DNA from: Candidatus Saccharimonadales bacterium
GTDB lineage: Bacteria; Patescibacteriota; Saccharimonadia; Saccharimonadales; JACQNP01
Length of the DNA: 56,338 bases
Reading direction: 5' to 3'
Assembly: GCA_038257245.1 (NCBI GenBank)
Contig: JBBSJL010000004.1
Coordinates: forward strand, 1 to 56,338
Every line of letters starts with the position of its first letter. Position 1 is the stretch's first letter. Below are positions 17,894 to 44,508 of this stretch, piece by piece. The notes below the pieces were generated by a model, which was not told the origin of the DNA, did no database searches, and worked only from the letters and a program-made list of their open reading frames with translations. A program made the translations under genes and the position numbers.

Positions 17894-18310
17894 GGGGCTG
17901 AATTTAAGCTCGACGTTGGACTTTATCAGTTAGAGAAGCAGGTCGCTTGCTGAGCGTTATACGGCAACTACGAATAAATGCAAAAACATTTACTCAGCGA
18001 ATAGCTAGTACTGTAGGTAACGGAGTTAACGCTCTTGTTGCTTCACTTAGTACTCCAGCTTTCGCAACAGCTGCGTAATTAATTTTATGTAGCCATGTTC
18101 TAGCGTGACACCAGATAGTGCTAGTCGTGTTATATTATCTGGATGCTCAGATTATGTGGCCCACATGGTCTGTTAAGATTTAGGGCAATCAGAACCTGCC
18201 TTTTGGTCATTGATCAGCAATGTTTTGATAAATTTAAATGACCTATGCCTGTAGATGCTCTAACAAAGATGAACTAGCGGACGCGGGGGCAGTACCCGCC
18301 AGCTCCACCA
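17894..18310 (+). ncRNA. ssrA: tmRNA (SsrA)
   Basis: The 5' GGGGCTGAATTTAAGCTCGACG pairs with the 3' CAGCTCC-ACCA, giving a G3:U70 pair. The T-arm is GCGGG-GGCAGTA-CCCGC. The tag frame ends ..STPAFATAA-TAA (stop at 18076-18078). A possible resume codon is GCA at 17980. Confidence 0.85.
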
Positions 18311-29267: not shown

Positions 29268-29763
29268 CTCCATACTGTCATTACCAACGGCCGTAACGGG
29301 TCGTATGGATGTTGGGCGATTGGCTCGTGAGGTCGAAGCATTAGATAACTTTTTAGAGCAAGCTAATGTCAGAAAGCCCGGCACCGCTATTCAAATGCCT
29401 AAAACTAGCAGAATATTAGATGAGATTCTAGAACACAACAAGATCAATGCCCTTGTCGATGCAGACAGGCAAAGATTGTTAAACTTCTTAATTACCGTTA
29501 GGGCCAAAGCACCGATTTTGCATATGAGTTTTAGCGCTGATCCCTCACCAATTTTTACTCAAAAGTTAGTAGTGTGGTTACGTGAAAACATTCATCCTTT
29601 GGTGCTGATTCAGATTGGGCTACAGCCCAATATTGGGGCAGGCTGTGTAATACGTTCAACAAATAAGTATTTTGATTTAAGTTTGCGTCAGCACTTTGCT
29701 AAACAACAGGAGCTGCTAATGCTTAAAATTCATGGCGCAACGTCCAGCGAGGTTCCGAAGTAA
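29254..29763 (+). CDS. atpH: F-type ATP synthase subunit delta (OSCP)-like
   Basis: The C-terminal LQPNIGAGCVIRSTNKYFDLSLRQHF resembles the delta consensus dp.liGG..v..gd...D.S.r. The gene order also fits. Confidence 0.65.
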   Translation: MEQDNSILSLPTAVTGRMDVGRLAREVEALDNFLEQANVRKPGTAIQMPKTSRILDEILEHNKINALVDADRQRLLNFLITVRAKAPILHMSFSADPSPIFTQKLVVWLRENIHPLVLIQIGLQPNIGAGCVIRSTNKYFDLSLRQHFAKQQELLMLKIHGATSSEVPK

Positions 29764-31189
29764 TGGCTAGTGGCAACCAACATTTTGATAAACTTGTGGC
29801 TAACGGCAACCCCGTAGGTGAAGTCATTGCTGTAGATAATTTCTTACTACGAGTTCACGGTTTGCAACCCTGCAACATACACTCTCTGGTTATGTTTGAG
29901 GATGGGAGTAAGGGTTTTGTGCATCAGATAGCAAATGATCATGTGGTAATCCTTCACCTAGGTACCGACAAGCTACAAATAGGTATGGTAGCTGTCGTTC
30001 AGCACGAAGAGTTAGTTTGTAAAGTCGGGAAAGATTATATTGGTCGAGTTATTAGCGTTACTGGCGAACCACTTGACGGTAAGGGGCCGATTGCGGCCGA
30101 CTCGGTCTGGGGAGTATTTAATACAGCTCCACCACTTTATGAGCGTAAATTACTAGATACTCAGCTAGAGAGTGGTGTTACAGCTATTGATGCACTATTC
30201 CCGGTTGTAAGGGGTCAAAGAATGGCCTTGCTTGGTGATAGTAAATCTGGCAAAAGCACCCTAGCAACACAGTTAACAATTAATCAGAAGAACACTGACC
30301 AAGTAGTGGTTTATGTATTGATTGCAAAACGAAGAAGTGACATCGATACTTTATTAACTAGACTGCAAGAGACGGAGTCTCTACAGAAAGCCATCGTGGT
30401 AGTTTCCACGATGTTTGAATCATTAATTATGAGTTATATTGCGCCTTATGTTGGCTGTGCAATGGCTGAGTACTTATGGCAAGTTTTGGGTCAAGACACG
30501 ATAATTATCTACGATGACTTAACTACTCATGCTCATGCGTACCGAGAAGTAGCTCTAATGTCTGGAGTTAGCCCAGGGCGTGATTCATATCCTGGTGATA
30601 TGTTTTTCGCTCATTCGAGCCTGCTAGAAAGAGCTGGGCGACTAGACAGAAATGGGGCCCACCTGACGAGTGTTCCTATTATTAATGCTGCAGGTGGTGA
30701 CATCACAGCCTATCTACCAACAAATGTTATGTCAATTACAGACGGGCAGTGGATATTAGATATGGATATTTTCCGAAATGGTATCCGTCCAGCTGTCAAT
30801 ATGGGCTTATCAGTTACTCGTGTCGGTGGCGTTGGTCACAATAAACGACAGAAAGGACTGGCTGCAAAAACACTAAAAACTTTGGCACTATATCGGCAGG
30901 CAGAAGAGTTTTCTCACTTTGGATCTGAACTTGCTCTAGAATCAAAAAAGGCTCTGGAGACCGGTAAACATATATTCGAGCTTTTAACACAGTCCCCTTC
31001 AGATACTTACTCATTGATTGGCCAACAGCTTATGATGGATATTATTCTAAATCTCGAAGATGGAGTTGTGCTAGACATAAGTGCCATGAAGCTTAAGGTG
31101 GCAGAATTTGCCGCCAAGGTTGAAACTGATGAGCAATTCGACAAAGTACGCGATGAACTCAAGTCAGTCAGTCAGGTGGAATTAAAACG

Positions 31190-31193
<4 letters not shown>
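29763..31193 (+). CDS. atpA: F-type ATP synthase subunit alpha (divergent)
   Basis: The P-loop is GDSKSGKST. IIYDDLTTHAHAYREV, PGRDSYPGDMFFAHSSLLERA, PTNVMSITDGQ and RPAVNMGLSVTRVG are also present. Confidence 0.9.
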
Positions 31194-33351
<2,158 letters not shown>

Positions 33352-33367
33352 CGTATGATTGAATAGT

Positions 33368-33688
33368 ATGGCAGACGAAGTAGTCCCACCAGCAGCCCAA
33401 GACAGTAAACCAGCAATCAAAGAAAAGGTTGATACGGGTGATTCAGATCACATGCACATTAAAGTTTACGCTCCGTTCAAGGTTTATTTTGATGGAATTG
33501 CAACCAGCATTTCAGCCGCAAACGATACGGGGCCCTTTGATATATTGCCGGGGCACCACAACTTCATGACTTTAATAAGCCAAGGCGAGGTAATTGTCCG
33601 AACAGACAAAGGCGAAGAAAAGTTTAAAATATCTCACGGTATTATGCATGTAAAAGCCGATGACGTTGTAGTCTTTCTAGACGTTTAA
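33368..33688 (+). CDS. atpC: F-type ATP synthase subunit epsilon (beta-sandwich only)
   Basis: HIKVYAPFKVYFDG...GPFDILPGHHNFMTLISQGEVIV fits epsilon. There is no C-terminal helical hairpin. I chose ATG at 33368; the track starts at TTG 33359. Confidence 0.75.
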   Translation: MADEVVPPAAQDSKPAIKEKVDTGDSDHMHIKVYAPFKVYFDGIATSISAANDTGPFDILPGHHNFMTLISQGEVIVRTDKGEEKFKISHGIMHVKADDVVVFLDV

Positions 33689-33692
33689 GGAT

Positions 33693-34661
33693 CTATTCAA
33701 TTACGATGTAGTCAAAGCTAAATGAAGTTCCTGGAGACGCAGGATTAATAGTGCATATACTAAATCCACTACTGGATCGGTCAATGTAATAGCCAAGCCC
33801 AGCAGCCGCGCCGCCTACGGGCGTCACAACAACATGTGGTGTGGAATTAAAACCATTAGTAAATGAAATAGCCACGAAACAACCAGCACTTGGTCCACCA
33901 CCGATGTTAATATTGACCGTACCTGCTGTATCTGTACCGCTATTAGATGCCGTTCCACCAGAACCTAGCGCTGCACCATTGGATTTTCCGGGGGTGCCAC
34001 CACCAGCATCAATGTGCCGACTGAATTGTAAATCGCCACTAATTTGTAAACTTCCTGTCGAAACTACTGGGGCTGAAATACCACCACCGAATGATCCGCC
34101 ACCAGAAACAGTCAGATTTTTCTCGACAGTTAATTGGCCTTGAACACTTACATCGCCAGATACAGATAATTTGTTAGCTTGAATTTGATCAAAGCTACCT
34201 TGGCCAGATACCGTAATTCCTGGCAGGCTCAATGTTCCACCTACTTTAATTGTGCCTGCTACATCAATACTATCGCGGAACAGAGCTTTACCAGTAAATA
34301 TAGTATTGGATTCTATATTTAACGTTTGTTTTGGATCTCCAACTTTTGTAGCACTGTTACTGAGCTCTTGTATCTGTTCTTGAGTTAGCGACTGCGTGTC
34401 GATTGTTGTAGTAGTTTCGACTTTTTTATTACGCTGAATGCCTACGAACACTATCCCGGCTGTTAAGACCAGTATTAAAATAAACAAAAGCAAGTAAATG
34501 TTTATATGCGAAACTAAACCTTGAATTCGTTTACCAAAACTTACTTTTGGTTTTTCAGGTTTCTTATCACTGCCATCTCCGGGTTTGTTCGTATTTTCTA
34601 CTACTGTATCCGGATCTTCTAGTGAATCTAACTCGTTACTTTCTTTCTGTTCATTCTCCAT
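33693..34661 (-). CDS. Type II membrane-anchored surface protein with a Gly/Ser/Thr-rich beta-helix-like repeat region and a C-terminal beta-sandwich-like domain
   Basis: An acidic N-tail and the TM helix IYLLLFILILVLTAGIVFVGI are followed by repeated G.L.V.G..SV.G segments. The C-terminus is FNSTPHVVVTPVG..GYYIDRSSSGFSICT..SFSFDYIVIE. Confidence 0.65.
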   Translation of the reverse strand: MENEQKESNELDSLEDPDTVVENTNKPGDGSDKKPEKPKVSFGKRIQGLVSHINIYLLLFILILVLTAGIVFVGIQRNKKVETTTTIDTQSLTQEQIQELSNSATKVGDPKQTLNIESNTIFTGKALFRDSIDVAGTIKVGGTLSLPGITVSGQGSFDQIQANKLSVSGDVSVQGQLTVEKNLTVSGGGSFGGGISAPVVSTGSLQISGDLQFSRHIDAGGGTPGKSNGAALGSGGTASNSGTDTAGTVNINIGGGPSAGCFVAISFTNGFNSTPHVVVTPVGGAAAGLGYYIDRSSSGFSICTINPASPGTSFSFDYIVIE

Positions 34662-34792
34662 AAATACTTCAAAGCTTATGCTTTACTGATATATATCATA
34701 CTATGTATCTCTGAAAAACATAACCAAATTGTATTTAAATAACTAATTTGTGATAATAATTATGTTATGGATGCTTAAATCCAAGGGTTGCT

Positions 34793-35488
34793 ATGTCTAA
34801 TAAATACAAAATCGGAGTAAACCACGCTAGACAAAGGCGGTTTCTTCGCTCCGCCCGTGTGTTTATCATCATAGTAATTGTTTTACTTCTTATTGCAGGC
34901 TTATTTATTTTGATTGATGCAATATTGCAAAACCGAAAGGCAAACACGCCGTCCGAAGCTACCACGCCTGTGTCATCTTCCATCGCGCCAAGTATAGAAA
35001 TATTCACTTCTCCTTACTTTCAGTTTCAAACTGATAAGAATTGGCGTTTTATTGCCAACGAGTCCACAGGCACTAAGTTTGTGTACCGTCGTGGTACAGA
35101 TAATTTAGTTAGCGGCGACATGACAGTATATATTAATTCAGGCCCTGCTGATACTCAAGCAACCAGAGTATTGCCCGTCACCCTTCAGTCAGACCCCAAC
35201 AAGCTTAAAGCAAGTTTTGTTTCGGAACATTGTAGCAAAAACCTGGCCAAAGAGATCAGAGATACAACAGGCGAAATAACACTTACATTAAATTCTGTTA
35301 GATTTTTATGTGACGCTGACGGCACAAACTACACCATAATCGTTGGGTTAGAAAACGGTACTTTTTCCATGAATTTCAAACGACCAGACGGAACCAATGC
35401 CACCTACATTGTCTTTTTTAGAGACCTTCGATTTTCAGCGGAACCATCCGAATTCGAAACAATAATGAATTCATTTCAAATTCGCTAG
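34793..35488 (+). CDS. Hypothetical membrane-anchored extracytoplasmic protein
   Basis: A basic N-terminus and the TM helix VFIIIVIVLLLIAGLFILI are present. An AAGGG SD lies upstream. Confidence 0.6.
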   Translation: MSNKYKIGVNHARQRRFLRSARVFIIIVIVLLLIAGLFILIDAILQNRKANTPSEATTPVSSSIAPSIEIFTSPYFQFQTDKNWRFIANESTGTKFVYRRGTDNLVSGDMTVYINSGPADTQATRVLPVTLQSDPNKLKASFVSEHCSKNLAKEIRDTTGEITLTLNSVRFLCDADGTNYTIIVGLENGTFSMNFKRPDGTNATYIVFFRDLRFSAEPSEFETIMNSFQIR

Positions 35489-35524
35489 CAACAAAATAAT
35501 TATCTTTATGCTAATATTTATAAG

Positions 35525-36295
35525 ATGAGAATAAAAGCTCTTTGGTTGTTGATATTTGCGTTTATATTCACTGTTAGTGGCACCACTGTGCTAGCTCAAC
35601 AATCATCCTCTACAAACTACCGGGTTGATGAAACATTTTTTGGTTCTGGAGGTGAACTAGATGCAAGCAGTGCGACATATCGAGCCCAGCAATCAGCTGG
35701 CGGCCTAGGCGTTGGCTATACCTCAAGTACGAGTTACGACGTAAATGGAGGTTTTCTAACTCAAAACAATGCTTACCTGGAAATGTCAGTAGAAAACGTA
35801 ACCGTTGATTTTGGAACTCTTTCCCCCTCCAGTACTTCATCGGGTGCCGCACAAGGCGGCGTATGCAACTGCTCGTTCATCGTCAGAACATATGTGTCAT
35901 CACAATACGTTGTCTATTCAATAAGTGATCCACCTACTAATGAAAGTGGTGACATACTGACGGCCAAGTCAGTACAGGGGTTACCGTCAGTTGATCAAAA
36001 TGTAGAAGAATTTGGCATGAATGTGGTTGCAAATACAACTCCGGCAATAGGAGCTGACCCTACTAATTATCCGGATAATACTTTTGCAGATGGACAAGCT
36101 GGCTCGGGGTATGAAATAACCGATCAGTTCAAATATGCCAAGGATGATATTATCGCCAGGTCGCAAGCGTCAGCCGGTAACCCTGCAACCGGTAGAACCG
36201 ATTACACGATCTCCTACATTGCCAAGATCAATAACATTACCGCCGCTGGTCTGTATACAATGAACCAAACTCTAGTGACTGTACCTACTTACTAA
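35525..36295 (+). CDS. Secreted protein, paralog family member 1 (short form), C-terminal motif GLYTMNQTLVTVPTY
   Basis: The signal peptide ends VLA/QQ. It shares the FGMNVVANTTP block and the C-terminal strand with the next two genes. An extended -10 box (TGcTAATAT) lies 7 nt before the ATG. Confidence 0.7.
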   Translation: MRIKALWLLIFAFIFTVSGTTVLAQQSSSTNYRVDETFFGSGGELDASSATYRAQQSAGGLGVGYTSSTSYDVNGGFLTQNNAYLEMSVENVTVDFGTLSPSSTSSGAAQGGVCNCSFIVRTYVSSQYVVYSISDPPTNESGDILTAKSVQGLPSVDQNVEEFGMNVVANTTPAIGADPTNYPDNTFADGQAGSGYEITDQFKYAKDDIIARSQASAGNPATGRTDYTISYIAKINNITAAGLYTMNQTLVTVPTY

Positions 36296-36316
36296 TTATC
36301 CACTCCCTGTGGATAA
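36296..36316 (+). terminator. Hairpin after paralog 1 (possible attenuating terminator; no T-tract)
   Basis: The hairpin is TTATCCAC-tccct-GTGGATAA, a perfect 8-bp stem. Confidence 0.3.
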
Positions 36317-36332
36317 ACATAAGTGTAATTAG

Positions 36333-36361
36333 TTGCTTATGGTTACGAATAATGGTATAAA
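36333..36361 (+). promoter_or_regulatory. Sigma70-like promoter of paralog 2 (TTGCTT-17 nt-TATAAA)
   Basis: The hexamers and the 17-nt spacer were read directly. They are followed by an A-rich leader of about 50 nt and an AAAGGAG SD. Confidence 0.45.
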
Positions 36362-36411
36362 TCTAAGGCAATCAACCAAAACAAAAAACAATTTAAAAAG
36401 GAGAATATATT

Positions 36412-37701
36412 ATGAAGCAAACTCTTCATAGGCTTGACTATAGGAAAAGTATGTCCAGAATGTTGCAAATTGCAGCAGCCGGAATGTTACTGACCGCAAG
36501 TATTGCCCAAATTATTGGGTTTCAAAGTGCCGAAGCAGCACAGATGGGGTCACGCAAGGTCACAATCAGTGATTCTGAAATAAGCGCCACAGGCGTAGAC
36601 TATACCTTCACCTTCACTACAGCTACATCAGCTGCTATTCAAGGTGTAAGGTTACAGTTTTGTGACACACCACTAGGTACATGTAACGCTGTTTCAGGCG
36701 TGTCTGTAGCTACTGCTGACGCAACCGCTGCCACACAGACCTGGACTAATGCAGGTGACATAGATGACAACGGTAGCTTAGACGAAGGTGACTGTACAGA
36801 AGCAACTAACTCTGCATTTGAAATATGCTTAGAGCGAGCAAACGCAACTGCCGAAGCCGCAGCCTCTAAAGTATTTACACTAAATACAGTAACTAACGCA
36901 GACGCTCAAGACACAGTATATGTACGTATCGCTACTTATAGTGATACAGCATTTGCTACTTTAGTCGACAGCGGTATCGTTGCAGCCGCAATGGTTCGAC
37001 AACTAACAGTTAATGGCCGCGTTCAGGAACGTCTAGAATTCTGTGTATCAGCAATCGATGACGCTGCTGCACTGCCAGCAAACTGTACTGCAATGGGTTC
37101 AAACACCACTATAGACTTAGGTGTAATCGATAATTCATCGGTTAAAATAGCACCGCAAAACGATGCTACTCCAAGTGACGGAGCAAACGATGACTATGGC
37201 ATAGCCATGATTAACACCAACGCTTCTAGTGGCGTAGTGCTAACCTACTTCCCAGAAGCTGCCGCTACAGGAACAAACGAACTGCGATCTTTCCGTGTTA
37301 CAGGTGCTACATGTAATGTTTCCGGTACTGACGTAACTGACCAGTGTTTCCAAGACGCAACACCTAACAACACTGCAGATGTTTTCGCAGCTGGAACAGA
37401 ACGATTTGGAATGGTAGTCCCATGTGTTGACAATACACAAGGTACAACCACTAACCTTACTACAGTTCCTACAGCCTATAACGGTGACGACAACGACGTA
37501 ACTTTTGCTGGTGACTGTGAGAACGAAGCAGAAACAGAATTTGCTTGGAATGATTCAGCTACAGCTGCAACGCTAGCTAGCTCATCAAACGTTGTTGACG
37601 ACGAAATAGTTAAGCTACGATTCGCAGCTACAGCTAGCGCAACGACACCAACAGGTTCATACACAGTAACTACTACTTATATTGCTACACCTACTTTCTA
37701 A
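36412..37701 (+). CDS. Secreted Ala/Thr/Asp-rich protein, paralog family member 2 (candidate major subunit), C-terminal motif GSYTVTTTYIATPTF
   Basis: The signal peptide ends AEA/AQ. Ten Cys occur in apparent pairs. It is homologous block by block to 37747-38805. Confidence 0.7.
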   Translation: MKQTLHRLDYRKSMSRMLQIAAAGMLLTASIAQIIGFQSAEAAQMGSRKVTISDSEISATGVDYTFTFTTATSAAIQGVRLQFCDTPLGTCNAVSGVSVATADATAATQTWTNAGDIDDNGSLDEGDCTEATNSAFEICLERANATAEAAASKVFTLNTVTNADAQDTVYVRIATYSDTAFATLVDSGIVAAAMVRQLTVNGRVQERLEFCVSAIDDAAALPANCTAMGSNTTIDLGVIDNSSVKIAPQNDATPSDGANDDYGIAMINTNASSGVVLTYFPEAAATGTNELRSFRVTGATCNVSGTDVTDQCFQDATPNNTADVFAAGTERFGMVVPCVDNTQGTTTNLTTVPTAYNGDDNDVTFAGDCENEAETEFAWNDSATAATLASSSNVVDDEIVKLRFAATASATTPTGSYTVTTTYIATPTF

Positions 37702-37746
37702 GTAAACGTAGAAACAAAAGCAATAAACTAGTACAATTACAAGCAT

Positions 37747-38805
37747 ATGCGAGGGCCGACAAACAAATACTGGTTACGATATGCAACAATGACGCTACTT
37801 ATAATAGTAGCGTCATTTGTTAATTTATTAATTCCACTGAAGGCAGGCGCTGCTGAGTTAACTAGTAGATCAATAGTCGTAGCTTCAAGTGTTTCCAGCG
37901 CATTAACTAATCACAGATATAACTTCAGAGTTAACGGCGCGATTACTATCGGGTCGTTAGAGATCGAGTACTGTACAAATACACCCTTAATTGGAGCACC
38001 TTGTGTCGCACCTGCAGGCTTTAGCTTAGTTTCATCATCTATGGGGGCACAAACAGGTTTAACAGGTTTTTCTATACATCCAAGTACCACAACGAATAGG
38101 CTTATTCTTGGCAGAACTCCGTCGGGGGTTGTGCCGCCGACCACAGCTGCGATTACAGTTAATAGTATCAATAACCCCAGTACACCAAATCAAGCAGTAT
38201 TTGTTCGCATAAGTACATTCGCCACTAATAATGCTACTGGGATTAGGGGTGATAACGGATCTGTTGTCTTCGCCACTACCAGGTCATTAAATGTTAGCGG
38301 CTTTGTACCACCGTATTTAACATTTTGTGTCGGCAATACTGTGGCAGCAGATTGTTCCAGCGCGACTGGTAACTATCTGGATTTTGGTGAACTTACAAAC
38401 CTAACCACCAGAACAGTTACCAGTCAATTTGCTGCGGCAACGAATGATAATACTGGCTATGTCGCAACCGTATCGGGACTTACTTTGATTTCAGGAAATA
38501 ATATAATCCCTGGGCTAGTAACACCTACAGTGAGTTTACCCGGAACATCACAGTTTGGTATTAATTTGCGTGCCAATTCGTCGCCTGTCGTTGGTACTGA
38601 CAAAACAGGCGTTGGTACAGGAGTTCCAGCTGCTGCATTCAATACACCCAATAACTATGCTTTTCAGAATGGTAATATTGTAAGTTCACCAAAATCTACG
38701 GATTTTAACGTTTTTACGGTAACCTATATTGCTAATGTAGCCCCAAATCAGCCACCAGGTATCTATATATCAACATTTACCTTTATTGCAACGGTGTCAT
38801 TTTAA
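37747..38805 (+). CDS. Secreted protein, paralog family member 3, C-terminal motif GIYISTFTFIATVSF
   Basis: The signal peptide ends AGA/AE. It shares these blocks with 36412-37701: EYCTNTPLIGAPC versus QFCDTPLGTC, VFVRISTFAT versus VYVRIATYSD, and SQFGINL versus ERFGMVV. Confidence 0.7.
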   Translation: MRGPTNKYWLRYATMTLLIIVASFVNLLIPLKAGAAELTSRSIVVASSVSSALTNHRYNFRVNGAITIGSLEIEYCTNTPLIGAPCVAPAGFSLVSSSMGAQTGLTGFSIHPSTTTNRLILGRTPSGVVPPTTAAITVNSINNPSTPNQAVFVRISTFATNNATGIRGDNGSVVFATTRSLNVSGFVPPYLTFCVGNTVAADCSSATGNYLDFGELTNLTTRTVTSQFAAATNDNTGYVATVSGLTLISGNNIIPGLVTPTVSLPGTSQFGINLRANSSPVVGTDKTGVGTGVPAAAFNTPNNYAFQNGNIVSSPKSTDFNVFTVTYIANVAPNQPPGIYISTFTFIATVSF

Positions 38806-38869
38806 CATTTACATAGTCTGATATATTGCTTATACTTGATACCAATAGACTTAAGGAGGGAATGCATTA

Positions 38870-39874
38870 ATGGTTAATATTAAACGTATAATATCGGGTG
38901 TACTTATGGTAGCTTTGCTAGCTATAGCACCATTATCGGTGGGGATCGCACAGGAAGAAAAAGGCGGTAGTGGTTTACAGATCACTCCTACTAGGACAGA
39001 AATGTCTCTGCTCCCAGGTGAACAAAAAGATTTTGATATTACTGTCAAAAATATCACCCAAGGTACTATTCAGGTAAAATCTTTCTTTAACGATTTTGAA
39101 TCTGATGGAGTAACTGGGGATCCGCAAATAGTTATAGATCCAAACCGACAAGTTCCTAACTCCATGAAGGACTATATTAAAGGTATTGATGATTTTACTT
39201 TAGAAAAAGGTGCTTCGAAATCGGTTAACTTGACAGTAGACTTGCCACCAGACACTAGCCCTGGAGGGTACTATGGTGTTGTCAGGTTCGCTGCCTTCCC
39301 AGAAGGAGCAGACACGAGTGGAGAAACTCAAGTATCTCTAAATGCTAGCGTGGCTTCTCTTCTGTTGGTAGAAGCATCCGGTGATATAACTGAACAGATC
39401 CAGATAACTAGTATTAAGAATTGTAATTTAAGTGATGAAGAGGGTTCTAAAACTAATGCTAAGTGTGAAAGTTCTGGTGGGCTATTCTTCGGTACAGGAC
39501 CAAATTACACAAGCATAGCAATCGATAATAAAGGCAATAGTTTCTCTCGACCATTTGGCAGGGTTGCGGTTACGCGTGGTGGTACAGAAGTTTATGCTTA
39601 CGAGCTAAACAATAAAGAACCCCGTGGTGCCATTTTGCCAAATTCATCTCGTATATTTACTGACAAGATTGAAAATGTCGATAAGTTGGGCAGGTACACT
39701 GTTACTACCAACATTTCTCATGGTCAAGGTGGCGAGGTAATAACCCAAACCGCTAGCTTCTGGTATATCCCTACCTGGGCATTACTGGTTGGAGTCGGAC
39801 TATTAATAGCATTAATAGTATTGGTATTTACTATCTATAAAAAGATGGGCAAAAAACGTAAATCGCGAAAATAA
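38870..39874 (+). CDS. DUF916/DUF3324-like (CscA-like, pilus-chaperone-like) protein with signal peptide and C-terminal TM plus basic tail
   Basis: An AAGGAGG SD is present. LQITPTRTEMSLLPGEQKDFDITVKNITQGTIQV is a typical first Ig-like domain start. The second domain reads VAVTRGGTEVYAYEL..AILPNSSRIFTDKIENVDKLGRYTVTTNISHG. The C-terminus is LLVGVGLLIALIVLVFTIYKKMGKKRKSRK. Confidence 0.7.
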   Translation: MVNIKRIISGVLMVALLAIAPLSVGIAQEEKGGSGLQITPTRTEMSLLPGEQKDFDITVKNITQGTIQVKSFFNDFESDGVTGDPQIVIDPNRQVPNSMKDYIKGIDDFTLEKGASKSVNLTVDLPPDTSPGGYYGVVRFAAFPEGADTSGETQVSLNASVASLLLVEASGDITEQIQITSIKNCNLSDEEGSKTNAKCESSGGLFFGTGPNYTSIAIDNKGNSFSRPFGRVAVTRGGTEVYAYELNNKEPRGAILPNSSRIFTDKIENVDKLGRYTVTTNISHGQGGEVITQTASFWYIPTWALLVGVGLLIALIVLVFTIYKKMGKKRKSRK

Positions 39875-39893
39875 AAGCAAGGGATAATTAATT

Positions 39894-39926
39894 CACACCC
39901 AACTGGTTAATTATCAGTTGGGTGTG
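39894..39926 (+). terminator. Strong hairpin terminator after the chaperone-like gene
   Basis: The hairpin is CACACCCAACTG-gttaattat-CAGTTGGGTGTG, a perfect 12-bp stem. Only a weak T-tract follows. Confidence 0.6.
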
Positions 39927-39942
39927 TTAATATAACATAAGC

Positions 39943-40869
39943 ATGAACACCTCTGTTAATAGGCAAAAATCGAAAATTATAACTGCTATTCTTTTAGCCA
40001 CGATCGTGGCTATCACGAGTATGATAATTAGTTCACAAGTGGTAAACGCTCAAACATCTCAATCTGGTTCTATTGGTATAGAAGGTACAATATCTTCGCC
40101 ACCACCAACACAGGGTGCCACGATTAGTCTACCAACTAATGGCCAGGCTTTTACAACCATACCCGTCAATGTGTCTGGGTTATGTCCAAATGATCTACTA
40201 GTCAAAGTTTTTAAAAACAATGTATTTGCCGGTGCCGTGCAGTGTACCAACGGCAGTTATTCTATAGTCATTGATCTATTTCCGGGTACAAATGAATTGG
40301 TTGCTAGGGTATATGATGCCCTAGATCAGCCTGGACCAGACTCAAACGTAGTCACTGTCACATTTCGTGATAATCGCCAAGGAGCGGCCTCTAGGGTTAC
40401 TCTAACTAGCAATTATGCCAAGCGTGGAGCTAACCCAGGCGAAGATCTGGTTTGGCCAATCATATTATCTGGAGGTATCGGCCCATATGCCATTAGTGTA
40501 GATTGGGGTGATGGCTCAACGCCAGATCTGATTAGTCAAGAATATCCGGGCGTGTTTAATATTACCCACAAATACGATTCACCAGGTATTTACAATATGA
40601 TTATCAAAGCCACTGATAAAGACGGTGGAACTGCATATTTGCAACTAGTTGGTATTGCTAACGGACCGCTTAGCCAAGAAAATGGTACAGGTGGGTCTGG
40701 AAGCGGCTCTGGAGGGGATGGCAGTGACTCAGGTGGCACCAAAACCAAAATCCTTTGGCAGCCTGCGGCTCTGACTATTCCATTCGTAATATCTACTTTT
40801 TGGCTTGGCAAGAAGTATGAACTAAGAGTGCTGCGCAAAAAGATCGAACGTGGCGATCGACCTTTCTAA
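39943..40869 (+). CDS. Secreted PKD-domain protein with Gly/Ser linker and C-terminal TM anchor
   Basis: The signal peptide ends VNA/QT. The PKD-like motif is VDWGDGSTPD...ITHKYDSPGIYNMIIKATDKDGG. The linker is GTGGSGSGSGGDGSDSGG. The C-terminus is a TM helix followed by KKYELRVLRKK. Confidence 0.7.
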   Translation: MNTSVNRQKSKIITAILLATIVAITSMIISSQVVNAQTSQSGSIGIEGTISSPPPTQGATISLPTNGQAFTTIPVNVSGLCPNDLLVKVFKNNVFAGAVQCTNGSYSIVIDLFPGTNELVARVYDALDQPGPDSNVVTVTFRDNRQGAASRVTLTSNYAKRGANPGEDLVWPIILSGGIGPYAISVDWGDGSTPDLISQEYPGVFNITHKYDSPGIYNMIIKATDKDGGTAYLQLVGIANGPLSQENGTGGSGSGSGGDGSDSGGTKTKILWQPAALTIPFVISTFWLGKKYELRVLRKKIERGDRPF

Positions 40870-40894: not shown

Positions 40895-41944
40895 ATGGCA
40901 AAAAAAGTTTATGTTGGGCTGAGTGGTGGCGTAGACAGTTCAGTCACCGCTGCACTTCTAAAAGAGCAGGGTTACGATGTAACTGGTGTTTATATGAAGA
41001 ACTGGAGTCAGGATTTGCCTGGCTTTGAATGCCCCTGGAAAGAAGATTATCAAGATGCCAAGCGTGTAGCCGTACAGTTGGGAATATCCTTCAAAATGTA
41101 CGATTTTGAAAAAGAATATCGCAAAGAAGTCGTCGACTACATGATTGCCGAATACAAAGCAGGCAACACGCCCAATCCCGATATTATGTGCAACCAGGAA
41201 GTGAAGTTCAAATTATTCCTAAATACCGCGCTCAGCGATGGGGCTGACATGATTGCCACTGGCCACTACGCCAAACTAAGTAATGGCAAAATGTACATGG
41301 CTGATAATCTAGACAAAGACCAAACGTACTTTTTGTACCGTGTAACCGAAGACGCGCTCAAAAAGAGCCTGATGCCCCTAGGAGAATTCAAAACCAAAGA
41401 CGAAGTTCGAGCCATTGCCAAGAAATTAGGTCTAGTAACTGCTGATAAAAAGGATAGCCAGGGTATATGCTTTGTCGGTAAGGTTGGGATCCGCGAATTC
41501 TTAGAACAATATGTCGAGGCAAAAACAGGCAAAATTATTGATCAGAATGGCTTAACGATGGGGCAACACGACGGTGCAATATTCTACACTATTGGGCAGA
41601 GACATGGCCTAGACGTCGGCGGCGGTCTGCCATATTACGTATCTGGCAAGAATATGAAAAAGAACGAAATTCACGTCACGACTAATCTAGACGATAAGAA
41701 TCTCTGGCGCAGACAGCTAAAACTCACCAGTATACACATAATTAATGATAAGAAGATATTCAACACGTTAACCCTTAACAAGTTAAGTGTCCGAACCAGG
41801 TACAGGGCACCGCTTATTTCTTGTAATTTTGATCTAAAAACTGGCGTTGTAGATCTTAAAGACGAAATTCGGGCTGTTACGGCTGGACAATCAGCAGTAT
41901 TTTACCTAGATGGCCAGTGCCTTGGTGGCGGAATTATAGTTTAA
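40895..41944 (+). CDS. mnmA: tRNA 2-thiouridine(34) synthase
   Basis: The PP-loop is VGLSGGVDSSV. NPDIMCN and DSQGICFVG are also present. Confidence 0.9.
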   Translation: MAKKVYVGLSGGVDSSVTAALLKEQGYDVTGVYMKNWSQDLPGFECPWKEDYQDAKRVAVQLGISFKMYDFEKEYRKEVVDYMIAEYKAGNTPNPDIMCNQEVKFKLFLNTALSDGADMIATGHYAKLSNGKMYMADNLDKDQTYFLYRVTEDALKKSLMPLGEFKTKDEVRAIAKKLGLVTADKKDSQGICFVGKVGIREFLEQYVEAKTGKIIDQNGLTMGQHDGAIFYTIGQRHGLDVGGGLPYYVSGKNMKKNEIHVTTNLDDKNLWRRQLKLTSIHIINDKKIFNTLTLNKLSVRTRYRAPLISCNFDLKTGVVDLKDEIRAVTAGQSAVFYLDGQCLGGGIIV

Positions 41945-42615: not shown

Positions 42616-44508
42616 ATGAATGCACAGGAAATTAGGAAGGCTTATCTAAAGTTCTTTGAAGAGCGTGGTCACACAATTGTTCCGCGGGCTCTTCTGGTAC
42701 CTTATAACGATCCTACAACACTATTTACTGGTTCTGGTATGCAACCAATGATTCCGTATCTTTTAGGTGAAAAACACCAAAATGGTACACGTATTACTGA
42801 TAGCCAGACTTGTTTGCGCGTTCAAGACATTGAGGAAGTAGGCGATAACCGACACGATACTTTGTTTGAGATGTTGGGCAACTGGTCTCTCGGCGACTAT
42901 TTTAAAGCCGAACAGTTACCGTGGTTTTTTGAATTCTTAACAGATATTGTCGGTCTCGACCCTAAAAGGCTATATGTCACTTGTTTTATTGGTGATGAAG
43001 CCAACGATATCCCAAGAGATAGTGAAAGTGCCGATATTCTAGAGAGACTATTTGCCGGCAAAGGTATTAAGGCTAAGCGAGCTGACATTGGGTCAGAAGC
43101 TGATGGCCATAAACGTGGCATGAAGCAGGGCGAACGCATTTTCTTTTATGATGATAGTAAAAACTGGTGGTGGAGAGGCAGTCTCATTGCTAACATGCCA
43201 GCCGGTGAGCCGGGCGGTGGTACCAGTGAGGTGTTTTATGAATTTGACTTTGTGCCACACGATACGAAATACGGTGTAAACTGTCATCCTAACTGTGATT
43301 GTGGCCGTTTTATCGAAGTTGGTAATAGCGTATTTATGGAATATGTTAAAACAGATAGTGGACTAGCGAAACTGCCCAAACGGAACGTGGATTTTGGTGG
43401 TGGGCTAGAACGCATTGCTCAGGCTGCCATAAATAGCCCAGATATCTTTAAGATTAGTATTATGTGGCCAATTGTCGAAGAACTAGAAAGATTAAGTGGC
43501 AAAGAATATGATAGTCATACGACGGCCATGCGTATCATAGCTGATCATATTCGTAGTGCAGCTTTTTTGGCTGTTGATGGCGTTGTGCCAAGCAACAAAG
43601 AACAAGGCTATGTAATGCGTAGACTTATGCGCAGAGCGATTCGTTTTGCGCTTGAACTTGGCGTCGAACAAAACCTCTGTGAAAACCTAGTGCCGATTGT
43701 TGCGGATATGTATGCTGATGATTACCCAGAAGTAAAAGCAAAACGCCAAGATATAATCGATATACTCATCAAGGAAGAAAAAATATTTCGTCAAACTTTG
43801 CGCAAGGGAGTAAAAGAGCTTCAGAAGATGGCCAATAAAAGGACGTTAGACGGTGGTGGAATTTTTATGCTTTATGACACATATGGCTTCCCTGTTGAAT
43901 TGAGTGTCGAAGAAGCTTATACATTGGGCTATGAAGTTTCGGAACGTTGGCGCGAGGAGTTTGAAGTAAAAATGGCCGAACAGAGAGAACGATCACAAAC
44001 AGCAACAAAAGGAACATTTAAAGGTGGGTTGGGTGGCCAAAAAGAAATTCATAAGAAATATCACACATCAACCCATTTGATGTATCAGGCGTTACGTGAC
44101 GTACTTGGTGATCATGTTACTCAAAGGGGTAGCAATATTACTGAAGAGCGACTCAGATTTGACTTTAGCCATCCTGAAAAAGTTAACCCAGATCAGATTA
44201 AACAAGTAGAAGATATTGTTAACGAACAAATTGCCAAAGACCTTAAGGTATCATGGGCAGAGTATCCAACCGAGGAAGCAACTGGAAAACTCGGTGCACT
44301 TGGGCAGTTCGGTGATCGATACGGCGATACCGTAAAAGTTTACAAGATGATTGCTGATGATACCGACAAGCCATTTAGCTTTGAAATATGCGGCGGACCA
44401 CATGTCGATCATTCTTTACAACTATTTGAAGACAACAAAAAATTCAAAATAATAAAAGAAGAAGCCAGCTCAGCAGGAATACGCCGTATAAAGGCAGTAT
44501 TGCAATAG
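42616..44508 (+). CDS. alaS: Alanyl-tRNA synthetase, short form (630 aa; catalytic plus editing domains, no C-Ala/DHHA1 tail)
   Basis: IRKAYLKFFEERGHTIVP, LFTGSGMQP and FEMLGNWS fit AlaRS. The editing-domain motifs HTSTHLM and CGGPHV are present. Confidence 0.9.
   Translation: MNAQEIRKAYLKFFEERGHTIVPRALLVPYNDPTTLFTGSGMQPMIPYLLGEKHQNGTRITDSQTCLRVQDIEEVGDNRHDTLFEMLGNWSLGDYFKAEQLPWFFEFLTDIVGLDPKRLYVTCFIGDEANDIPRDSESADILERLFAGKGIKAKRADIGSEADGHKRGMKQGERIFFYDDSKNWWWRGSLIANMPAGEPGGGTSEVFYEFDFVPHDTKYGVNCHPNCDCGRFIEVGNSVFMEYVKTDSGLAKLPKRNVDFGGGLERIAQAAINSPDIFKISIMWPIVEELERLSGKEYDSHTTAMRIIADHIRSAAFLAVDGVVPSNKEQGYVMRRLMRRAIRFALELGVEQNLCENLVPIVADMYADDYPEVKAKRQDIIDILIKEEKIFRQTLRKGVKELQKMANKRTLDGGGIFMLYDTYGFPVELSVEEAYTLGYEVSERWREEFEVKMAEQRERSQTATKGTFKGGLGGQKEIHKKYHTSTHLMYQALRDVLGDHVTQRGSNITEERLRFDFSHPEKVNPDQIKQVEDIVNEQIAKDLKVSWAEYPTEEATGKLGALGQFGDRYGDTVKVYKMIADDTDKPFSFEICGGPHVDHSLQLFEDNKKFKIIKEEASSAGIRRIKAVLQ

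Follow-up and report, generated by a model that had tools for sequence, protein, structure and literature searches.

A probable minimal Pam-type pilus operon in a Saccharimonadales bacterium, with an anchored chaperone distantly related to WxLIP

The DNA analysed here, called the window throughout, is a stretch of 56,338 nucleotides (nt) of contig JBBSJL010000004.1 (assembly GCA_038257245.1) from a Candidatus Saccharimonadales bacterium, a member of the candidate phyla radiation (CPR). Between positions 33693 and 40869 the window carries seven genes, which we label g1 to g7 in the order of their coordinates. A sequence-only reading of this DNA had delimited seven open reading frames (ORFs) in this region, and all of them were confirmed exactly, with their coordinates and strands; as had been noted, g1 is the sole - strand gene and diverges from the six + strand genes, which are spaced by 36-131 nt. 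The same reading had placed a signal peptide or a transmembrane (TM) anchor at the start of every product. A Kyte-Doolittle scan, from which all the TM segments of the proteins given below are taken unless a structural model is named, found an N-terminal hydrophobic segment in each of the seven proteins, and the N-termini of g3, g4, g5, g6 and g7 look like signal peptides. We consider it highly likely that the locus is a minimal Pam-type pilus operon, with assembly of the fibre by a chaperone and by strand exchange between subunits. The chaperone-assisted surface-fibre system proposed from the sequence is thus supported, the locus being a homologue of the Pam pilus operon (Table 1).

The Pam system was described in 2026, by cryo-electron microscopy (cryo-EM), in Candidatus Mycosynbacter amalyticus (Troman et al., bioRxiv 10.64898/2026.03.03.709456). 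The thin filaments of this organism revealed two-domain pilins, PamA and PamB, which polymerise by donor-strand exchange, the donor being the strand that links the N- and C-terminal domains. The filaments are extended and non-coiled, and the structures are PDB entries 25PZ and 25QA. PamC and PamD are PapD/FimC-like chaperones with a C-terminal TM helix. Three more products of the operon are PamE (another pilin), PamT (a tip pilin of a single domain) and the RbmA-like, anchored PamR, which is the proposed pilus terminator and membrane tether. Pam homologues are limited to the CPR, and the operon adjoins ATP synthase genes and a gene for a tail fibre-like protein that is central in the pam neighbourhood network (all from bioRxiv 10.64898/2026.03.03.709456).

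Families were assigned with NCBIfam 20.0, using the models NF058578 (PamR), NF058579 (PamT) and NF058581 (Pam_pilin_C). These models matched g3, g4, g5 and g7, and the PamR match and two of the Pam_pilin_C matches were above the curated cutoffs. The g7 product matched the CPR_pilus_PamR equivalog over residues 12-303 with 400.7 bits (cutoff 300); its C-terminus consists of a Gly/Ser linker, a moderately hydrophobic segment and a Lys/Arg-rich tail, and its Pfam matches to PKD are weak. Pam_pilin_C, with a cutoff of 55 bits, was found in g5 with 144.4 bits and in g3 with 110 bits, and g3 also gave a full-length match (residues 7-256; 233.5 bits, cutoff 240) to the CPR_pilus_PamT equivalog, with which its position and architecture agree. 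The genes g3 to g5 had been read as encoding three paralogous secreted proteins, and this was confirmed, though the paralogy is distant: all three match one NCBIfam domain model, g4 and g5 have a common N-terminal domain (BLASTP E=7e-8), g3 and g5 have a common C-terminal domain (E=1e-5), and g3 and g4 gave no significant BLASTP match. The idea that the paralogues are structural subunits is supported by their match to a hidden Markov model (HMM) for pilins whose structures were solved by cryo-EM. By contrast, the claim that this architecture would be new in the CPR has been overtaken, since the Pam operon was described in 2026 and curated NCBIfam models exist. The Pam locus itself is of an already known kind, and its residual novelty lies in the homology between its chaperone and WxLIP and in a conserved hairpin, both described below.

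Table 1. Features of the Pam-type locus and its surroundings in the window
Feature	Coordinates	Strand	Description
atpA, atpG, atpD, atpC	29763-33688	+	F1 ATP synthase alpha, gamma, beta, epsilon; directly upstream of g1; from the ORF list
g1	33693-34661	-	Type II anchored protein; extracellular bactofilin-like/tail-fibre-like beta-helix and conserved C-terminal domain
g2	34793-35488	+	N-terminal anchor, extracellular domain of ~180 amino acids; first gene of the + strand block
g3	35525-36295	+	PamT-type single-domain tip pilin; signal peptide, short Gly/Ser/Thr-rich N-terminal segment, Pam pilin strand-accepting C-terminal domain
g3-g4 intergenic region	36296-36411	+	Small hairpin, extended -10-like TGgTATAAAt box, AAGGAG Shine-Dalgarno sequence; read from the sequence
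g4	36412-37701	+	PamA-position two-domain pilin; 10 Cys; copy-number-variable class
g5	37747-38805	+	PamE/PamB-class short two-domain pilin; single-copy
Terminator-like hairpin	37788-37817	+	Perfect 12-bp stem, 6-nt loop, T-rich tail
g6	38870-39874	+	PamC/D-type anchored chaperone; signal peptide, two immunoglobulin (Ig)-like beta-sandwich domains, C-terminal TM helix, Lys/Arg tail
g7	39943-40869	+	PamR; RbmA-like (FnIII/PKD-like), Gly/Ser linker, C-terminal membrane anchor
mnmA	40895-41944		Downstream of g7
alaS	42616-44508		Downstream of mnmA

The strand that links the two domains of the Pam pilins could also be recognised here. An AlphaFold2 model of g5, with a predicted local distance difference test score (pLDDT) of 86.6, comprises an N-terminal sandwich (residues 39-176) and a C-terminal domain (197-352), with a linker strand (191-196) between them. 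From the cryo-EM model one would expect strong conservation of the donated linker, and this was seen: by conservation, the linker strand GRVQERLEFCVS (residues 202-213) ranks first among the 12-residue blocks of g4, and the linker PPYLTFCVGNTV ranks second in g5. In g3 the corresponding stretch does not belong to the conserved blocks, which fits a tip subunit that accepts a strand only. Donor-strand complementation by the C-terminal strand had been suggested as something to test; strand donation as such agrees with the Pam cryo-EM results, but in that system the donor is the inter-domain linker and not the C-terminal strand. Searches for g5 homologues returned 696 proteins, and those with names were all from Saccharibacteria/Patescibacteria. 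Sequence searches of the PDB returned nothing informative for g5, for g6 or for four family profiles (A1, A2, A5 and A6), the PDB copy used being one without the Pam structures 25PZ and 25QA, and a PHROGs scan of g1 to g4 and g7 gave nothing useful.

Compared with the M. amalyticus system, the locus has in common a probable PamT, two-domain pilins with a Pam C-terminal domain, a TM-anchored chaperone of two Ig domains and PamR, as well as the Sec signals on the products, the conserved inter-domain donor linker and the lack of an usher or ATPase. An ATP synthase operon and a tail-fibre-like gene adjoin both, and the spread of both is restricted to the CPR. The locus differs in being a minimal set, with one chaperone and two two-domain pilins, and these pilins are shorter, at 429 and 352 amino acids (aa), compared with the 55.3 and 38.7 kDa reported for M. 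amalyticus. By gene order, following the accession numbering of the preprint, g4 would correspond to PamA and g5 to PamE, and g6 would occupy the PamD position.

Several points weigh against the identification of the locus as a Pam pilus operon. It is known here from its genes alone, and the filaments were seen by cryo-EM in the M. amalyticus homologues. The orthology of g4 with PamA and of g5 with PamE rests on the gene order just mentioned and not on sequence comparison. The PamT score of g3 is just below the cutoff (233.5 versus 240 bits), and the Pam_pilin_C match of g4 has an E-value of 9e-9 but, at 35.5 bits, does not reach the cutoff (55). The window lacks the second module, PamB/PamC, that M. 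amalyticus has, and neither further pilin paralogues nor a second pilin/chaperone module was found elsewhere in the window. A Foldseek search with the full-length g5 model found just generic two-Ig adhesins with template modelling scores (TM-scores) of ~0.2, and the resemblance of g5 to PamA and PamB does not come from direct superposition, the Pam structures being absent from the PDB copy searched. The generic character of the g5 matches nevertheless agrees with the claim of the preprint that the pilin architecture is distinctive. A transposon sequencing (Tn-seq) paper on Saccharibacteria (PMC10633639) makes no mention of the locus under the terms searched.

That the product of g6 has two domains and ends in a TM segment plus a Lys/Arg tail, as read from the sequence, was confirmed: the C-terminal TM segment (residues 295-327) is followed by KKMGKKRKSRK. 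The AlphaFold2 model of g6 (pLDDT 89.9; predicted template modelling score, pTM, 0.78) consists of a signal helix, two sandwiches (residues ~36-144 and 160-301) and, at 302-332, a TM helix. In a Foldseek search of the PDB the best match of this model was the Enterococcus faecium WxLIP (9i1y, E=1e-11), followed by 9i25, a WxLIP entry described as bound to long WxL (E=3e-11), and then by the chaperones CfaA, CsuC, Caf1M and FimC with E-values of ~1e-9 to 1e-8. The alignments to WxLIP cover 262-289 columns with modest TM-scores of 0.4-0.5, which may reflect differing inter-domain angles in a two-domain protein. In the corresponding search with g5, the WxL chain of 9i25 was outside the top 50.

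The sequence-only reading had assigned g6 to DUF916/DUF3324, that is, to the CscA type. Against the Pfam family PF06030 (DUF916) g6 scored 18.3 bits, under the cutoff of 27.3, and 56 of its 57 aligned relatives matched this family, the best with E=4e-8. PF11797 (DUF3324) was matched by none of the 57, and no PapD family of Pfam was matched by g6 or its relatives. About a quarter of the 182 g6 homologues carry a precomputed PF06030 match, and one is named by NCBI as a DUF916 protein of Candidatus Saccharibacteria. For profile comparison, reference WxL clusters were gathered from metagenomes by the published DUF916 motif and validated, with PF06030 plus PF11797 in 10/10 WxLIP and PF13731 in 14/14 WxL proteins. 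With hhalign, the Pam chaperone family aligned to the validated WxLIP at 97.3% (E=2e-11) over 223 collinear columns across both domains; cross-controls gave 1.2-1.6%. Domain 1 alone reached 94.6% (E=7e-8; controls up to 2.4%), and domain 2 alone gave a weak match (12.8%, E=0.002; controls 0.3-2.1%); the reversed and swapped controls of these single-domain runs spanned 0.3-2.4%. The high value against the low controls indicates that the DUF916/CscA assignment was correct as a statement of distant homology; its DUF3324 half went undetected by Pfam, and the collinearity and fold of the second domain point weakly to that identity. A distant homology of g6 to the WxLIP of Firmicutes (DUF916-DUF3324-TM) is thus well supported, although g6 is not a member at the Pfam threshold. 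Among the conserved blocks of g6 are the strand that comes first behind the signal peptide and the long strand that closes domain 1 (GYYGVVRFAA); judged by analogy to the chaperones of chaperone-usher pili, these two are likely to bind the subunits.

The kinship with WxLIP gives some weight to another explanation of the locus, namely that it encodes a Csc/WxL-type surface complex, as the sequence-only reading had suggested, in which g6 would be a WxLIP holding non-polymerising surface proteins for adhesion or polysaccharide binding, with no pilus involved. We consider this improbable. In its favour, g6 is a genuine distant homologue of WxLIP by structure search, Pfam matches of its relatives and profile alignment alike, and in the Csc/WxL systems of Lactobacillales, Listeria and Enterococcus the WxLIP (DUF916 PF06030, DUF3324 PF11797 and TM) is built in the same way, from a signal peptide through two Ig domains and a TM segment to a Lys/Arg tail. 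The clusters also follow a parallel grammar, with a single-domain substrate, larger multi-domain substrates with a common C-terminal domain, and then the anchored, chaperone-like partner. For WxLIP, it has been predicted that an inserted strand of this protein completes the beta-sandwich of WxL (PMC10599100), the same principle as strand donation by the Pam chaperone.

The substrates, however, speak against this explanation. The WxL family PF13731 had no match in g3 to g5 or in 50 g5 relatives, and a regular-expression search for LPXTG, prepilin and WxL motifs found none in any of the seven proteins. With hhalign, the g5 family against small WxL proteins gave 0.4%, and a broad profile built from 158 non-redundant C-terminal domains of Pam pilins gave 0.2% when compared with 16 WxL domains, with just a last-strand motif aligning. 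Homology between the pilins and WxL proteins was rejected at the sequence and profile levels, the likeness of the last strand (G-x-Y-x-T-x-T-[YW]-[IL]) being not significant. Since the subunits lack a detectable WxL domain, the locus is not a Csc/WxL cluster, and that part of the earlier reading was not borne out. The substrates match instead the HMM of pilins with cryo-EM-solved filaments, their donor linker strand ranks first in conservation in g4 and second in g5, and filaments have already been reported for the M. amalyticus homologues, whereas WxL proteins are regarded as wall-bound and not filament-forming. Further differences are that domain 2 of g6 is weakly similar and without a PF11797 match, that the systems belong to different phyla, and that a sortase gene stands beside the WxLIP gene in some metagenomic clusters, whereas the Pam locus has neither a sortase nor an LPXTG protein. 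In several metagenomic clusters of Firmicutes type, the WxLIP gene is overlapped at its end by a sortase-like gene whose product has a TLITC motif (L086 5771-6580, - strand, with equivalents in L087, L093, L099, L101 and L106), and an ORF of ~120 aa lies between the large and small WxL genes; neither has a Pam counterpart.

The preferred reading, a Pam pilus with a WxLIP-related chaperone, leaves room for a deeper connection. In a term search, the main text of the Pam preprint showed no mention of WxL, Csc, DUF916 or DUF3324, and its discussion leaves the evolutionary origin of the system open (bioRxiv 10.64898/2026.03.03.709456). We put forward, as a tentative proposal that we hold to be rather doubtful, that within the WxLIP family the Pam chaperones form the CPR branch and that the Pam pilus and the Firmicutes Csc/WxL system descend from one usher-less, single-membrane surface-assembly system built around an anchored chaperone. 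The homology of the chaperone to WxLIP is well supported; homology of the substrates and a common mechanism are not. If the proposal is true, WxLIP would serve in assembly as a chaperone that donates a strand, not as an adhesin for the host or for peptidoglycan, and strand complementation or exchange might also be the way in which WxL proteins assemble. Beyond the published description of Pam, the kinship of its chaperone with WxLIP offers an evolutionary origin and a testable view of WxLIP as a strand-donating chaperone.

Still less probable, in our estimate, is that the locus belongs to a chaperone-usher pilus of Gram-negative type, to a sortase-dependent pilus or to a type IV pilus, the other parts of which are encoded elsewhere. 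The g6 fold is like that of CfaA, CsuC, Caf1M and FimC, with the Foldseek E-values given above, and the two-Ig chaperone fold is common to the Pap/Fim, CFA/I (CfaA-CfaB), archaic Csu and Caf1 pili. The donor-strand logic is also held in common: an incomplete Ig-like subunit domain is completed by a donated strand, and the tip subunit lacks a donor strand. However, no gene for an usher-like large beta-barrel is present at the locus or in 41 syntenic loci, and Pam differs from these pili in having no outer-membrane usher. The chaperone of the locus is membrane-anchored and not soluble, and neither a PapD nor an usher family of Pfam is matched, in line with the lack of any Pfam-level sequence similarity between the two systems. 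The pilins have two domains, and the donor strand is the linker between these and not an N-terminal extension. Pam filaments are extended and non-coiled. As for the sortase-dependent and type IV systems, the locus has no LPXTG motif, sortase, prepilin motif or PilB/PilC ATPase gene. The earlier statement that sortase, LPXTG, prepilin motif, usher and ATPase are all missing was borne out at the locus by the ORF list, the Pfam and NCBIfam scans and the motif search.

The Pam-type operon is conserved in Saccharibacteria. Relatives were found in 286 species among species-representative genomes, and the best 80 of the 286 were kept as loci; these 80 are all Saccharibacteria/Patescibacteria metagenome-assembled genomes (MAGs), the closest 71% identical. 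Gene presence was counted in the 41 loci with enough flanking DNA. All seven genes occur in the same order in 39 of these, with chaperone identities down to ~35%, so that the genes are co-conserved in related genomes, a point that had been put forward as a check. Gene by gene, g1, g3, g5 and g7 were present in 41 loci each and g2 and g4 in 40. Pfam annotation of the orthologous loci gave the order atpD-atpC-g1(-)-g2-g3-g4(n)-g5-g6-g7-mnmA-alaS, with the flanking synteny kept in 40-41 of the 41. The divergent orientation of g1, and the lack of informative family matches for g1 and g2, might suggest a chance cluster of unrelated secreted or anchored proteins without a common function. However, a set of seven genes that keeps its order in 39/41 loci is not a chance run, a single described system accounts for five of them, and this least credible of the alternatives is effectively refuted for g3 to g7.

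The copy number of the pilin genes varies by class. PamA-like genes of the g4 class number 0-4 per locus (e.g. L041, L046, L058 and L079), with one in the window, and this variation is what one would expect if the major subunit is exposed at the surface and diversifies. In nearly every locus there was a single match each for PamT, the g5-class pilin, the chaperone and PamR, and g5 is the most conserved pilin. In three Saccharibacteria MAGs the chaperone gene has been flipped at its usual place, so that it alone runs against all its operon neighbours, and the junctions are tight (L039 9947-10975, L045 9863-10879 and L060 4814-5833). A search around these flipped genes found no shared flanking inverted repeats and thus gave no evidence for an invertible switch.

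From these data and the published structures a mode of assembly can be proposed. All the products would be exported by Sec, and g6 would stay in the cytoplasmic membrane by its C-terminal helix, where it would donate a beta-strand to every pilin that has just been exported and so cap the incomplete Ig-like fold of its C-terminal domain. The starting point would be the single-domain tip pilin g3 (PamT), a strand acceptor only, and the two-domain pilins would then join by donor-strand exchange, the linker strand of the incoming subunit displacing the chaperone strand in the previous one. For the subunit order we infer that g4 is likely to be the major shaft subunit, making the bulk of the shaft, and g5 is likely to be a conserved, low-copy adaptor between the shaft and PamR. 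The N-terminal strand of the anchored g7 would fill the last groove, which would end growth and tether the fibre. An usher, ATPase or sortase would not be needed. The fibre is probably used to reach host cells, and would most likely extend from the epibiont for the first host contact. With one each of tip pilin, shaft pilin, adaptor pilin, chaperone and anchor, the locus is a clean minimal example of Pam, and such a minimal set helps to define which parts are core to a system by which ultra-small epibiotic bacteria are believed to make contact with their hosts.

The operon also carries signals that may bear on the ratio of the subunits. The terminator-like hairpin at 37788-37817 lies 87 nt past the g4 stop codon and 41 nt into g5, within the signal-peptide codons, and its RNA fold z-score is -3.65. 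The same stem is present in locus L001 (8915-8942). Among L006-L085, 32 of 73 g5 orthologues have an ungapped stem of at least 9 bp, with differing, compensating stem sequences, and in the comparison 5' regions of g2, g3, g4 and g6 such stems are far rarer, from 2/38 to 11/89. In an alignment made independently of the hairpin, 67.4% of cells were paired, compared with 59.8+-1.1 in shuffled alignments (0/500), and 126 cells were changed on both sides, compared with 72.7 (0/500). Despite this significant pair counting, RNAalifold returned no consensus structure for the same noisy 70-sequence alignment of the hairpin region. The 5' arm of the g5 hairpin starts with ATG in the window and with GTG in L006.

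A conserved hairpin just 3' of g4 fits g4 as the major subunit. In papA and fimA, likewise, the major pilin gene is followed by a hairpin, a further point of likeness between the locus and the chaperone-usher pili. We regard the hairpin as a candidate attenuator or transcript-end element, which may give a high ratio of major pilin to downstream products. The covarying hairpin after the presumed major pilin gene adds to the published description of Pam by suggesting how the stoichiometry of the subunits is set. In the 5' regions of PamR genes a stem of at least 9 bp was found in 22 of 81 sequences, 13 of them with a T-rich tail, which points to a further, rarer hairpin downstream of the chaperone gene; in the window itself there was no call of this kind.

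Of the three paralogues, the middle one, g4, had been credited with its own promoter and with the strongest Shine-Dalgarno sequence. The Shine-Dalgarno sequence of g4 (AAGGAG) is strong, but that of g6 (AAGGAGG) is equally strong, and no promoter site was called in the g3-g4 gap; g5 has no Shine-Dalgarno sequence. A consensus promoter scan showed no enrichment, with 15 sites against 18.3 expected. Right after the g3 stop codon lies the hairpin TTATCCAC-tccct-GTGGATAA (36296-36330), followed, upstream of g4, by the TGgTATAAAt box. Judged by eye from their letters, the hairpin and the box might be a terminator/promoter pair isolating the expression of g4, although consensus scans call neither.

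The two remaining genes, g1 and g2, encode conserved anchored proteins that are not named as Pam components in the preprint, and their positional conservation equals that of the named Pam genes. The TM segment of g1 (residues 45-78) lies behind an acidic/Lys-rich cytoplasmic head. Its extracellular part had been described as beta-helix-like, which is supported by weak matches to bactofilins and tail fibres: 18 of 22 g1 family members weakly matched Pfam Bactofilin (best E=1e-6), and the family profile gave E=0.0097 for a bactofilin and E=0.15 for a tail fibre in the PDB. We take g1 to be the counterpart of the tail fibre-like protein whose conserved gene neighbours the pam operon. In g2 the TM segment (residues 15-48) follows an Arg-rich head, and neither the protein nor its family matched Pfam, NCBIfam, PHROG or PDB entries; its invariant residues are F76, F78 and two cysteines, C147 and C173. 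Conserved with the operon, g1 and g2 are candidate pilus components that may have gone unrecognised.

Elsewhere in the window, a tmRNA gene at 17894-18310 (+ strand; Rfam RF00023, 78.9 bits) was the sole match at the Rfam gathering threshold.

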